From NCBI RefSeq assembly GCF_036507355.1, contig NZ_AP027877.1: DNA of 64,000 nt, one strand, 5' to 3'. Within the stretch, counting starts at the first letter, position 1. The number at the start of each line of letters is the position of its first letter. A program made the position numbers and the translations under genes. This stretch comes from Escherichia coli. Its GTDB lineage: Bacteria > Pseudomonadota > Gammaproteobacteria > Enterobacterales > Enterobacteriaceae. The notes under the pieces were generated by a model, which was given only the letters and a program-made list of their open reading frames with translations, searched no databases and was not told where the DNA came from. This document shows positions 8,665 to 10,781 of this stretch, piece after piece.

Positions 8665-8796
8665 ATGAAAAAGAAACCGGTTGCGCAGTTGGAGCGTCAG
8701 CATTCACTGCTGGAAAATCCATGTGCTTATGGGTTGTTATCGCAGTTCCAGGCTGCGATAGTCGTTAACTGTTTTACACTTAATAAAATAATTTGA
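8665..8796 (+). CDS. yqgB: small protein YqgB (43 aa) immediately upstream of speA
   Basis: ATG 8665 to TGA 8794-8796 encodes [43 protein letters not shown]; below the 60-aa ORF-track cutoff; stop lies 8 nt before the speA ATG. Confidence 0.75.
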
Positions 8797-8804
8797 GGTT
8801 CGCT

Positions 8805-10781
8805 ATGTCTGACGACATGTCTATGGGTTTGCCTTCGTCAGCGGGCGAACACGGTGTACTACGCTCCATGCAGGAGGTTGCAATGAGCTCCCAGGAAGCC
8901 AGCAAGATGCTGCGTACTTACAATATTGCCTGGTGGGGCAATAACTACTATGACGTTAACGAGCTGGGCCACATCAGCGTGTGCCCGGACCCGGACGTCC
9001 CGGAAGCTCGCGTCGATCTCGCGCAGTTAGTGAAAACTCGTGAAGCACAGGGTCAGCGTCTGCCTGCACTGTTCTGTTTCCCACAGATCCTGCAGCACCG
9101 TTTGCGTTCCATTAACGCCGCGTTCAAACGTGCGCGGGAATCCTACGGCTATAACGGCGATTACTTCCTCGTTTATCCGATCAAAGTTAACCAGCACCGC
9201 CGCGTGATTGAGTCCCTGATTCATTCGGGCGAACCGCTGGGCCTGGAAGCCGGTTCCAAAGCGGAGTTGATGGCGGTGCTGGCACATGCTGGCATGACCC
9301 GTAGCGTCATCGTCTGCAACGGTTATAAGGACCGCGAATATATCCGCCTGGCATTAATTGGCGAGAAGATGGGCCACAAGGTCTATCTGGTCATTGAGAA
9401 GATGTCAGAAATTGCCATTGTGCTGGATGAAGCAGAACGTCTGAATGTCGTTCCTCGTCTGGGCGTGCGTGCACGTCTGGCTTCGCAGGGCTCCGGTAAA
9501 TGGCAGTCCTCCGGCGGGGAAAAATCGAAGTTCGGCCTGGCTGCGACTCAGGTACTGCAACTGGTTGAAACCCTGCGTGAAGCCGGGCGTCTCGACAGCC
9601 TGCAACTACTGCACTTCCACCTCGGTTCGCAGATGGCGAATATTCGCGATATCGCGACAGGCGTTCGTGAATCCGCGCGTTTCTATGTTGAGCTGCACAA
9701 GCTGGGCGTCAATATTCAGTGCTTCGACGTCGGCGGCGGTCTGGGCGTGGACTATGAAGGCACCCGTTCGCAGTCTGACTGCTCCGTAAACTATGGCCTC
9801 AATGAATACGCCAACAACATCATCTGGGCGATTGGTGATGCGTGTGAAGAAAATGGTCTGCCGCATCCGACGGTAATCACCGAATCGGGTCGTGCGGTGA
9901 CTGCGCATCACACCGTGCTGGTGTCTAATATCATCGGCGTGGAACGTAACGAATACACGGTGCCGACCGCGCCTGCAGAAGATGCGCCGCGCGCGCTGCA
10001 AAGCATGTGGGAAACCTGGCAGGAGATGCACGAACCGGGAACTCGCCGTTCTCTGCGTGAATGGTTACACGACAGTCAGATGGATCTGCACGACATTCAT
10101 ATCGGCTACTCTTCCGGCACCTTTAGCCTGCAAGAACGTGCATGGGCTGAGCAGCTTTATTTGAGCATGTGCCATGAAGTGCAAAAGCAGCTGGATCCGC
10201 AAAACCGTGCTCATCGTCCGATTATCGACGAGCTGCAGGAACGTATGGCGGACAAAATGTACGTCAACTTCTCGCTGTTCCAGTCGATGCCGGATGCGTG
10301 GGGGATCGACCAGTTGTTCCCGGTTCTGCCGCTGGAAGGGCTGGATCAAGTGCCGGAACGCCGCGCTGTGCTGCTGGATATTACCTGTGACTCTGACGGT
10401 GCTATCGACCACTATATTGATGGTGACGGTATTGCCACGACAATGCCTATGCCGGAGTACGATCCAGAGAATCCGCCGATGCTCGGTTTCTTTATGGTCG
10501 GCGCATATCAGGAGATCCTCGGCAACATGCACAACCTGTTCGGTGATACCGAAGCGGTTGACGTGTTCGTGTTCCCTGACGGTAGTGTCGAAGTGGAACT
10601 GTCTGACGAAGGCGATACCGTGGCGGACATGCTGCAATATGTACAGCTCGATCCGAAAACGCTGTTAACTCAGTTCCGTGATCAAGTGAAGAAAACCGAT
10701 CTTGATGCTGAACTGCAACAACAGTTCCTTGAAGAGTTCGAGGCAGGTTTGTACGGTTATACCTATCTTGAAGATGAATAA
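8805..10781 (+). CDS. speA: biosynthetic arginine decarboxylase
   Basis: ORF 8793-10781; start at ATG 8805 gives the 658-aa product [52 protein letters not shown]... Confidence 0.95.

Follow-up and report, generated by a model that had tools for sequence, protein, structure and literature searches.

The yqgB-speA locus and the speA leader

The analyzed window is a 64,000-nt stretch of Escherichia coli DNA (contig NZ_AP027877.1, assembly GCF_036507355.1), in which the speA gene, with which the arginine route to putrescine begins, is directly preceded on the same strand by the small yqgB ORF, a placement shared by 79 Enterobacteriaceae sequences. The first-pass annotation had described a small ORF almost abutting speA, and this arrangement was borne out: yqgB starts with ATG at 8665-8667, contains 43 sense codons and ends with TGA at 8794-8796, and an 8-nt spacer (GGTTCGCT, 8797-8804) separates it from the first ATG of speA (8805-8807, further referred to as AUG1). 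In the ORF listing the frame extends in the 5' direction to GTG 8650 (48 aa); the RefSeq-annotated start is ATG 8665, and this ATG is shared without exception by 73 distinct orthologous sequences. Judged by its sequence, yqgB is a member of the YqgB small protein family, with a full-length match to Pfam PF11036 (E = 4e-33, 113 bits, cut-off 24) and a match to the NCBIfam equivalog model NF033844 (small_YqgB; E = 6e-26, 90 bits, cut-off 35). The UGAGG sequence, in which the stop codon and the speA Shine-Dalgarno (SD) sequence overlap, is located within a 22-nt stretch (TGAGGTTCGCTATGTCTGACGA) that is near-invariant, with a few single-base variants. It should be stressed that databases and the literature already contain the yqgB gene, its location and the hypothesis that it is a uORF; Adams et al. 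2021 (PMC7815308) named yqgB-speA among the candidates for regulation by a uORF.

The 5'UTR construct published by Adams et al. 2021 (PMC7815308) begins at 8307 (as deduced from its primers), which corresponds to a leader of about 498 nt, and Rho-dependent termination within this approximately 500-nt leader was reported in the same work; speA is repressed by polyamines and tuned by Rho. A second conserved uORF, yqgG, is located in the upstream part of the leader, and Weaver et al. validated that it is translated. The sole terminator-like hairpin (8587-8606) lies 3' of yqgG and 5' of yqgB, and no terminator-like site was found between yqgB and speA. Within speA, an internal initiation site was reported (PMC9825163), which gives a short isoform. 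The long, N-terminally extended SpeA isoform was reported to bear a secretion signal and to be periplasmic, and the short one to be cytoplasmic. The coordinates of the particular elements are presented in Table 1.

Table 1. Features of the speA leader and of the speA start region (positions within the window; helices H1-H6 are predicted)
Feature	Positions	Strand	Description
Distal speA promoter-like site	8270..8307	+	TTGCAA 8270-8275, N18, TATAAA 8294-8299
yqgG	8428..8571	+	second conserved uORF of the speA leader; strong SD; C-rich, G-poor, rut-like body
Helix H1	8614..8679	+	UGGUUUC 8614-8620 / GAAACCG 8673-8679; encloses H2 and the yqgB AUG
Hairpin H2	8622..8645	+	CCGAAC 8622-8627 / GUUCGG 8640-8645; covaries
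yqgB ORF	8665..8796	+	43 codons + TGA; annotated b2939, "acid stress response protein YqgB"
Helix H3 (in yqgB, codons 8-20)	8685..8726	+	UCAGC 8697-8701 / GCUGG 8709-8713
Helix H4 (in yqgB)	8732..8770	+	GGUUGUUAUCGC 8732-8743 / GCGAUAG 8755-8761 + UAACU 8766-8770
Helix H5	8775..8858	+	UACACU 8775-8780 (yqgB codons 37-39) / GGUGUA 8853-8858 (speA codons 17-18)
UGAGG	8794..8798	+	yqgB stop overlapping the speA SD (GAGG)
Hairpin H6 (around speA AUG1)	8798..8850	+	arms 8798-8815 / 8835-8850, 16 bp
speA	8805..10781	+	biosynthetic arginine decarboxylase, 658 aa counted from AUG1
Second UGA, within AUGUCUGA	8810..8812	+	uORF end (…EVRYV*) in 22-23 species; unused in E. coli
Internal speA start	8872..8885	+	SD AGGAGG 8872-8877 (invariant), AUG 8883 (Met27); short isoform

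Conservation of the open frame and of the peptide

The yqgB frame is open from its ATG to the speA start in all 79 Enterobacteriaceae sequences; of the remaining two frames of this stretch, one is open in 0/79 and the other in 4/79. Within the first 35 yqgB codons no in-frame stop was observed against 11.5 expected under column independence, and the same calculation matched the other two frames (240.5 expected vs. 236 observed, and 93.1 vs. 90, respectively). In 13 species the region carries 30-150 nt of extra sequence, and the yqgB frame is open in all 13. The annotated yqgD ORF of the same conserved intergenic region, used as a negative control, is disrupted in most species. The yqgB-speA ORF arrangement exceeds chance. 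The avoidance of stops in variable segments, the frame kept open across the insertions and the invariant ATG next to the decaying yqgD all weigh against the explanation that the yqgB ORF is incidental and that the region is kept as RNA structure, possibly with an internal promoter and a PurR-like operator; we regard this explanation as unlikely, and the observations in its favor are given with the helices below.

The stop of the uORF is always one of two UGAs located on either side of the speA AUG, so that the uORF ends 8 nt before it or 8 nt into speA. Of the 78 sequences with an assigned frame type, the 8-nt gap is found in 56 and the 8-nt overlap in 22; L038, which is outside this set, likewise overlaps speA, and in none of the 79 sequences does the uORF share the speA frame. 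The use of the second UGA in 22-23 species results from small indels or insertions shifting the uORF frame, and about 12 switches between the two frames were counted on a speA tree (a rough parsimony count), most of which alter little of the reading frame because the indels fall in the A/T-rich last few codons. This constant end of the uORF is partly automatic for any frame that remains open, since both stops lie in sequence conserved for the SD, AUG and codons of speA. A polyamine-stimulated +1 frameshift, by which ribosomes would leave the yqgB UGA for the …EVRYV frame, was also considered and rejected, as the codons preceding the stop are unconserved and there is no slippery site. The protein search for yqgB homologues (word index) reached only Escherichia-level relatives, and more distant loci were found via protein fragments. 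In three of these distant relatives (L085, L088, and L089) the uORF ends at the second UGA, and the distant relatives encode other uORF peptides (28 and 45-46 aa) with the same UGA end and the same hairpin arms; as their assemblies have frameshifted speA calls, we treat them as supporting evidence only.

The conservation of the frame is not accompanied by that of the peptide. The three codon positions of yqgB vary equally (0.56/0.60/0.55 bits vs. 0.08/0.03/0.88 in speA), i.e., there is no codon periodicity, and the pN/pS values are 0.4-0.9 for yqgB and 0.01-0.04 for speA. The YqgB lengths among species are 43, 38, 45, 47-49, 55, 60, 68, and 87-91 aa, the C-terminus is freely variable, and the conserved blocks lie at distances from the stop that differ by up to about 50 codons. 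The N-terminal MxKKPVAQ and the AIVVNCFTL segments are conserved, but these "conserved residues" correspond to blocks without nucleotide variation, even at synonymous sites, which coincide with predicted helices; invariant four-fold sites in speA amount to only 3/116.

This pattern bears on one specific form of the leader-peptide control raised in the first-pass annotation, namely that yqgB encodes a leader peptide of the arrest/sensor type (such as SpeFL, TnaC or MdtU), which would stall on a polyamine-pathway metabolite and thereby control Rho access or speA initiation. The speFL-speF pair, in which a conserved ornithine-sensing arrest peptide is encoded upstream of the inducible ornithine decarboxylase gene, is a polyamine system with a uORF of this type. 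The use of such uORFs by other polyamine genes (e.g., mdtU-mdtJI) and the Rho-dependent termination in the speA leader (PMC7815308), together with the two conserved segments, would fit this explanation. However, these segments are nucleotide-invariant and fit helices, the C-terminus and the block-to-stop distance vary, and distant relatives have unrelated peptides; purifying selection near the C-terminus, expected for an arrest or sensor peptide, is absent from the pN/pS values, lengths and C-termini of yqgB. Attenuation of the trpL type finds no counterpart either, as yqgB lacks a regulatory codon run (one Arg, no repeats). Moreover, overexpression of YqgB leads to accumulation of the peptide and to a heat-shock (aggregation) response instead of the arrest-like cold-shock signature (PMC11890864). 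With a freely varying C-terminus, pN/pS of 0.4-0.9, no terminator between yqgB and speA and a heat-shock signature, sequence-specific leader-peptide sensing by yqgB is not supported, and we consider a sensor peptide very improbable.

The same data are relevant to the view that YqgB is a trans-acting small protein, for which the adjacency to speA would reflect co-expression. The annotations of YqgB ("acid stress response protein" or "virulence promoting factor") take this view, curated family models exist for it, and the overexpressed peptide does accumulate and induce heat-shock proteins. The high pN/pS, the lack of codon periodicity, the nucleotide-level nature of the conserved blocks and the lengths ranging from 38 to 91 aa with diverse C-termini (and different peptides in the distant relatives) argue against this view, which we find rather unlikely, also in the light of the deletion phenotypes discussed further on.

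Predicted RNA helices around the speA start

The most prominent of the predicted structures is the H6 hairpin, with the 5' arm GUUCGCU-A-UG-U-CUGACGA and the 3' arm UCGUCAG-CG-GGCGAAC, which starts 2 nt 3' of the yqgB stop and abuts the speA SD. Its MFE and centroid folds agree, and in the RNAalifold analysis of 46 species 98.8% of the cells were paired. Synonymous third positions within the stem are invariant, whereas loop and bulge positions are variable. Of the 35 long ORFs in the window, speA has the start region (-10..+50) with the lowest MFE, -21.2 kcal/mol; in 78 species, this value ranges from -16 to -22 kcal/mol. Thus, AUG1 of speA is predicted to be sequestered in a conserved and unusually stable hairpin. 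The H5 helix closes over H6, and a published Term-seq 3' end (8862; Adams et al. 2021, PMC7815308) is located 4 nt 3' of H5.

Further upstream, the blocks forming H4 are invariant, synonymous sites included, and the outer helix of H3 (8685-8688/8723-8726) shows compensatory changes (AU:30 and GC:10 at one pair). H5, H6, and H1 show no compensatory changes because they are invariant; the support for these three helices consists of frozen synonymous sites, which could also reflect another constraint. The scan of the 7900-9100 region against Rfam 15 gave only a chance-level match to SNORD46 (E = 2, 16.6 bits vs. the gathering score of 40). Pairing of the 5' arm of H2 (CCGAAC) with the speA ribosome-binding site (GGTTCG) was rejected, as H2 covaries elsewhere and the ribosome-binding site does not.

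The synonymous invariance of the blocks and the prediction of helices across most of yqgB are arguments for an incidental ORF within a structured RNA. Others come from two DNA-level elements. The bases of H4 contain a sigma70-like sequence (TTGTTA, 8734-8739, N17, TGcGATAGT, 8754-8762), which may be regarded as a candidate internal promoter; T 8754 is conserved in 71 of 73 sequences although it is unpaired and at a synonymous site, and it fits the TG of an extended -10 element. If there is a promoter inside yqgB, some of the speA mRNA would be made entirely without the uORF. A second promoter-scan match (TTAACT-16-AATAAT, 8765-8792) was dismissed as implausible, because transcription would begin inside the SD. 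The AAGAAACCGGTTGCGC box (8671-8686) matches the PurR consensus at 11 of 16 positions, with the central CG kept. A PurR site is reported for speA. Since speA is absent from the paper on the PurR regulon (PMC3159470), we treat this box as a resemblance to the consensus.

The proximity of H6 to the yqgB stop may also be interpreted in the opposite direction to coupling, namely that yqgB translation is inhibitory, with ribosomes terminating on the speA SD occluding AUG1 and shifting expression to Met27. The overlap of the stop with the SD and the strong, invariant internal SD and AUG (8872-8885) are compatible with this, and a stable structure right after a stop codon is described as governing re-initiation (PMC7518266). 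On the other hand, AUG1 is predicted to be sequestered even without a ribosome, and, according to PMC13159126, yqgB deletion decreases, rather than increases, speA mRNA and enzyme. Inhibition by yqgB is, in our opinion, highly unlikely.

Putative coupling of yqgB translation to speA and related systems

Published data on yqgB translation are heterogeneous. The yqgB start was detected in vitro by INRI-seq, which counts against an incidental ORF, and was undetected in vivo by Ribo-RET, which speaks for one (both in PMC9825163); the latter result implies low translation in rich medium. Adams et al. 2021 (PMC7815308) call yqgB experimentally validated, and the avoidance of stops and the conserved ATG also speak in favor of its translation. 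No recognizable SD precedes the ORF, and H1 is predicted to enclose its start region.

According to PMC13159126, deletion of yqgB in Salmonella reduces the speA and speB mRNAs as well as arginine decarboxylase, with a phenotype that can be reversed by arginine or polyamines. Sensitivity to acid and colistin upon yqgB deletion and binding of ranitidine to the YqgB protein (by SPR) are reported there as well, which would favor a trans-acting protein. The deletion phenotypes can, however, be explained by the lowered speA/speB expression and are reversed with arginine or polyamines, and a trans-complementation result is not found in the available portion of that paper. Deletion of the whole yqgB gene also removes cis sequence, and not only yqgB translation.

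Taken together, we propose, at somewhat better than even chances, that yqgB is a translated, cis-acting uORF positively coupled to speA, the function of which lies in its translation and not in its peptide. Ribosomes reading yqgB would pass through H5 and stop at the UGA 8794-8796 (or, elsewhere, at the UGA 8 nt inside speA), i.e., 2 nt from the foot of H6. As H6 would bury AUG1 and abut the SD, the terminating ribosome would melt this hairpin, so that either re-initiation or a newly arriving 30S subunit could make use of AUG1. In addition, ribosomes moving over yqgB and the first part of speA should protect the leader from Rho. We infer that yqgB translation opens H6 and that the use of AUG1 depends on it. 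As far as can be judged from the sequence comparison, translating yqgB up to the speA start appears to be of greater importance than the peptide. Translational coupling, suggested for speA in the first-pass annotation, is supported indirectly by the conserved stop-start geometry, the frame open without peptide constraint, the predicted AUG1 hairpin and the Salmonella deletion data.

A more far-reaching version would be that yqgB, functionally no protein-coding gene, gates AUG1, sets the ratio of the long SpeA isoform to the short one (from the independent Met27 start) and links this choice to Rho attenuation in the yqgG and yqgB leader, and that both the phenotypes ascribed to the YqgB protein and its proposed drug targeting are cis effects; this we offer as a speculation with perhaps one chance in five. 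If yqgB acts via translation, its "acid stress response protein" label and the 2026 proposal of YqgB as a drug target would have to be reinterpreted in terms of polar or cis effects on speA/speB, and the phenotypes of the "acid stress protein YqgB" may indeed be cis effects on speA. The speA leader would then join mdtU and speFL among the uORF-controlled polyamine genes, and would be a simple case in which a uORF may select between two protein isoforms.

Coupling by unfolding of a sequestered ribosome-binding site is known from the coat-to-replicase/lysis arrangement of phage MS2 and from overlapping gene pairs, e.g., trpE-trpD. As in such coupled pairs, the yqgB stop is located a few nt from the speA start or overlaps it (within AUGUCUGA, in 22-23 species), and the speA initiation region lies, by prediction, in a stable helix that an upstream ribosome must traverse and would melt. 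Unlike in the classical systems, the upstream partner is not a functional protein gene but an ORF of 43 codons whose product is unconstrained.

Among the leader uORFs of polyamine genes, speFL-speF is similar to yqgB-speA in that the ORF is located 5' of a polyamine-biosynthesis decarboxylase gene of Enterobacteriaceae and Rho takes part in leader control (for the Salmonella speF leader, see PMC6386406), but YqgB has neither the peptide-level constraint nor the arrest-like signature of SpeFL. The mdtU-mdtJI leader of the E. coli spermidine exporter resembles it in having a small uORF in a long polyamine-operon leader with Rho-dependent premature termination; it is induced by spermidine, and its regulation may depend on the C-terminal sequence of MdtU (PMC7815308). 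In contrast to MdtU, the C-terminus of YqgB is unconserved, and yqgB terminates at the foot of the hairpin that holds the main AUG. The arrangement is also similar to the ribosome termination structure (RTS) described in PMC7518266, i.e., a stable, conserved mRNA structure directly 3' of a stop codon that influences re-initiation, with the difference that the structure predicted for yqgB-speA itself contains the downstream start codon.

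The yqgB locus and published data on the speA leader

The analyzed stretch is the metK-speA region of E. coli, for which K-12 MG1655 coordinates were converted into window positions by subtracting them from 3,094,716. The sequence bears out the ORF described in the first-pass annotation, i.e., an ATG at 8665, 43 sense codons and a TGA at 8794-8796, separated by 8 nt from the speA ATG (AUG1) at 8805, and the stop codon overlaps the speA Shine-Dalgarno (SD) sequence (UGAGG). As sequence, annotation and family matches of the peptide (Pfam PF11036, E=4e-33; NCBIfam NF033844, E=6e-26) agree, the earlier observation was correct and the ORF corresponds to the annotated gene; yqgB is real but already known, with an annotation, family models and a published upstream ORF (uORF) hypothesis. 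The surrounding 1 kb was found in 5,425 of 5,426 complete E. coli genomes. No recognisable SD was seen for yqgB, and its start is overlapped by a two-codon mini-ORF at 8660-8668, common but not universal among the species compared; E. coli has ATG TTA TGA there, and most species ATG ATA TGA.

Features of the speA leader in the window
Feature	Position	Strand	Remarks
yqgD	8066-8317	speA strand	RefSeq annotation
yqgC	8314-8529	minus	annotated in K-12 record only; antisense to yqgG
yqgG	8428-8571	speA strand	RefSeq annotation
yqgB	8665-8796	speA strand	RefSeq "acid stress response protein YqgB", b2939
speA	from ATG 8805	+	RefSeq annotation
H1	8614-8620 with 8673-8679	+	encloses yqgB AUG; invariant
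H2	8622-8627 with 8640-8645	+	compensatory changes
H3	yqgB codons 8-20	+	compensatory changes
H4	8732-8743 with 8755-8770	+	predicted helix
H5	8775-8780 with 8853-8858	+	invariant
H6	8798-8815 with 8835-8850	+	16-bp hairpin with speA AUG1; starts 2 nt past yqgB stop; invariant

A published construct of the speA 5' UTR spans 8307-8804 (Adams et al. 2021, PMC7815308), so that the leader, with yqgG and yqgB inside, measures about 498 nt. In the same work, Rho-dependent termination was reported in the leader and persisted in a UTR-only fusion, yqgB-speA was named among potential uORFs that lie near a 3' end and had been validated but not characterised, and a Term-seq 3' end at K-12 position 3,085,854 was flagged "uORF" in the authors' table (PMC7815308); coordinate conversion places this end at 8862, 57 nt into speA. 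The yqgB start codon was seen in vitro, by INRI-seq, and not in vivo, by Ribo-RET (PMC9825163). No paper with a direct test of yqgB-speA coupling was found in the literature searched.

Comparison of the yqgB frame and peptide among Enterobacteriaceae

The speA start regions of 80 Enterobacteriaceae species representatives (79 usable) were compared, with the uORF anchored at the ATG aligned to 8665. The yqgB frame was open in 79/79 sequences, and the two alternative frames there in 0/79 and 4/79. Within the first 35 codons of the 73 distinct sequences, no in-frame stop was observed against 11.5 expected under column independence, while for the other two frames the same calculation predicted 240.5 and 93.1 stops (236 and 90 observed), figures that do not constitute a formal probability because the sequences are related. 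Moreover, in the 13 species that carry an additional 30-150 nt ahead of the speA SD, the uORF was always open and the other frames often contained stops, and the control gene yqgD was broken in most species compared. This stop avoidance, together with the decay of yqgD, speaks against an incidental ORF laid over RNA and DNA elements, which we regard as unlikely.

Three speA-start loci (L030, L057, and L073) carry insertions of about 120-130 nt inside the uORF, downstream of the AIVVN block and upstream of the speA SD, with further ones in L056, L044/L080, and Kosakonia; all these uORFs stay open (55-91 aa). The longest insertions hold a G+C-rich inverted repeat (…CCCCAGTCAC…CTCCTGGGGATTC…) reminiscent of an ERIC element.

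Only two uORF endings were found, i.e., the UGA of UGAGG or an other-frame UGA in AUGUCUGA (…EVRYV*), 8 nt into speA, both of which sit in sequence conserved for speA's own reasons. Of 78 sequences typed by frame, 56 end at UGAGG and 22 at the AUGUCUGA UGA, and the speA frame is not used. By rough parsimony, the uORF switched between the two stop frames about 12 times, mostly through indels among the final A/T-rich codons; this and the conservation around both stops call for caution about the endings. The third frame, seen in no species representative, is used in a single protein record (P0020), which comes from a draft contig of Klebsiella pneumoniae IS43 and encodes an in-frame YqgB-SpeA fusion; it reflects either a sequencing error or a rare variant with a 1-nt indel.

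Variation by codon position was 0.56/0.60/0.55 bits in yqgB vs 0.08/0.03/0.88 in speA, and pN/pS was 0.4-0.9 vs 0.01-0.04. The 18 apparently conserved YqgB residues correspond to blocks that are invariant at the nucleotide level, even at synonymous sites; GGTTGTTATCGC (8732-8743) was invariant in 73/73 sequences, and among speA four-fold sites 3/116 were invariant (mean entropy 1.08 bits). The uORF ranges from 38 to 91 aa. More divergent relatives, reached via protein fragments, showed uORFs of 45-46 aa and an unrelated-looking one of 28 aa with the same UGA end, which deserve less weight because these assemblies carry frameshifted speA calls. Judged by these sequence comparisons, the conservation of yqgB does not lie in its peptide. 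A trans-acting small protein is therefore disfavoured and to us as improbable as an incidental ORF. In a 2026 Salmonella paper, YqgB is regarded as a protein drug target (PMC13159126). A sequence-specific sensor or arrest peptide appears more doubtful still, as the C-terminus is variable and YqgB overexpression in an arrest-peptide screen induced heat-shock proteins instead of an arrest-like cold-shock response (PMC11890864).

RNA structure and proposed translational coupling of yqgB to speA

Single-sequence folding and RNAalifold (46 species) gave the same chain of predicted helices, H1-H6. Across the alignment 98.5% of cells were paired vs 26-46% with partners slid by 1-3 columns, a control that counts less because it favours structure derived from the same alignment. 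H1, H5, and H6, being invariant, provide no covariation. Support for H6 comes instead from synonymous third positions, which are frozen in its stem (TCT, GAC, TCG, TCA, GGC, GGT, and GTA), and from its loop and bulge, where variation reaches 0.6-1.3 bits. The folding energy of AUG1 from -10 to +50, -21.2 kcal/mol, is the lowest among 35 long ORFs of the window (median -9.4), and ranges from -16 to -22 kcal/mol in 78 species. The Term-seq 3' end at 8862 lies 4 nt past H5, consistent with a transcript trimmed as far as a stable structure.

A ribosome translating yqgB would disrupt H5 and, on terminating at 8794-8796, would cover and open the base of H6, so that the speA SD and AUG1 would be exposed; such traffic would also shield the leader from Rho, which acts within the speA UTR (PMC7815308). 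The C-rich, G-poor stretch most like a Rho-loading site lies within yqgG (8420-8560). Based on sequence and modelled structure, we consider this positive translational coupling the most likely mechanism, at slightly better than even chances; we go no higher because in vivo yqgB initiation was undetected in rich medium (PMC9825163). Coupling accounts for the lowered speA and speB mRNA and arginine decarboxylase after yqgB deletion in Salmonella, where arginine, putrescine or spermidine reversed the deletion phenotype (2026, PMC13159126). As the deletion reported there lowers, not raises, expression, an inhibitory uORF is the least probable explanation. Of the earlier suggestion of translational coupling or leader-peptide control, the former gains new, indirect evidence, and the latter finds no support, given the variable C-terminus and the heat-shock signature. 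It can be argued, in testable form, that phenotypes ascribed to the YqgB "protein" arise in cis, through speA, and production of the long SpeA isoform may be gated by the uORF.

Other elements of the speA leader

A sigma70-like promoter inside yqgB (TTGTTA-N17-TGcGATAGT, 8734-8762) can also be read from the H4 blocks. Its 17-nt spacer varies in sequence but not in length, and its -10 is of the extended type (TGcGATAGT), with the T of TG conserved though unpaired and synonymous. The predicted start at about 8767-8770 would give a speA leader of about 37 nt, so that, if this candidate is active, part of the speA mRNA would lack the uORF. AAGAAACCGGTTGCGC (8671-8686), overlapping yqgB codons 3-8 and forming the 3' strand of H1, matches the PurR operator consensus at 11/16 positions, the central CG among them, and no other sequence upstream of speA matches it better; PurR reportedly represses speA. 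Within 8270-8307, a distal speA promoter-like site (TTGCAA-N18-TATAAA) is followed by the G+C-rich stretch ACGCGGCGCGCGG, which runs to the start of the published 5' UTR construct (8307) and is of a composition typical of stringently controlled promoters.

The second conserved uORF, yqgG (ATG in 78/79 species, mostly 47 aa), has an invariant SD (GGAGGTGAT) and a conserved 11-residue C-terminal stretch, and the leader has no C>G (rut-like) stretch other than the yqgG body. A hairpin (8587-8606) about 15 nt past the yqgG stop covaries between CTCTTG/CAAGAG and CTCCTG/CAGGAG, and the U-rich tract TTTTCTCGTGGTTTC after it is invariant. Such an arrangement resembles a leader ORF combined with an attenuator, and control by Rho or a terminator may be exerted mainly in the yqgG region (8428-8620).

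An internal speA start removing 26 N-terminal residues was reported in the INRI-seq paper (PMC9825163). This site (Met27, 8872-8885) has an invariant AGGAGG SD, and the 3' end at 8862 falls between H5 and that SD; the initiation site of the short SpeA isoform is therefore independent of the yqgB/AUG1 module. Furthermore, yqgC is reported to show no ribosome density and its tagged protein to be undetectable (bioRxiv 10.1101/511675); yqgC and yqgD look like doubtful genes, and the DNA under the broken yqgD is highly conserved at 8110-8160, possibly as a metK or speA regulatory sequence.
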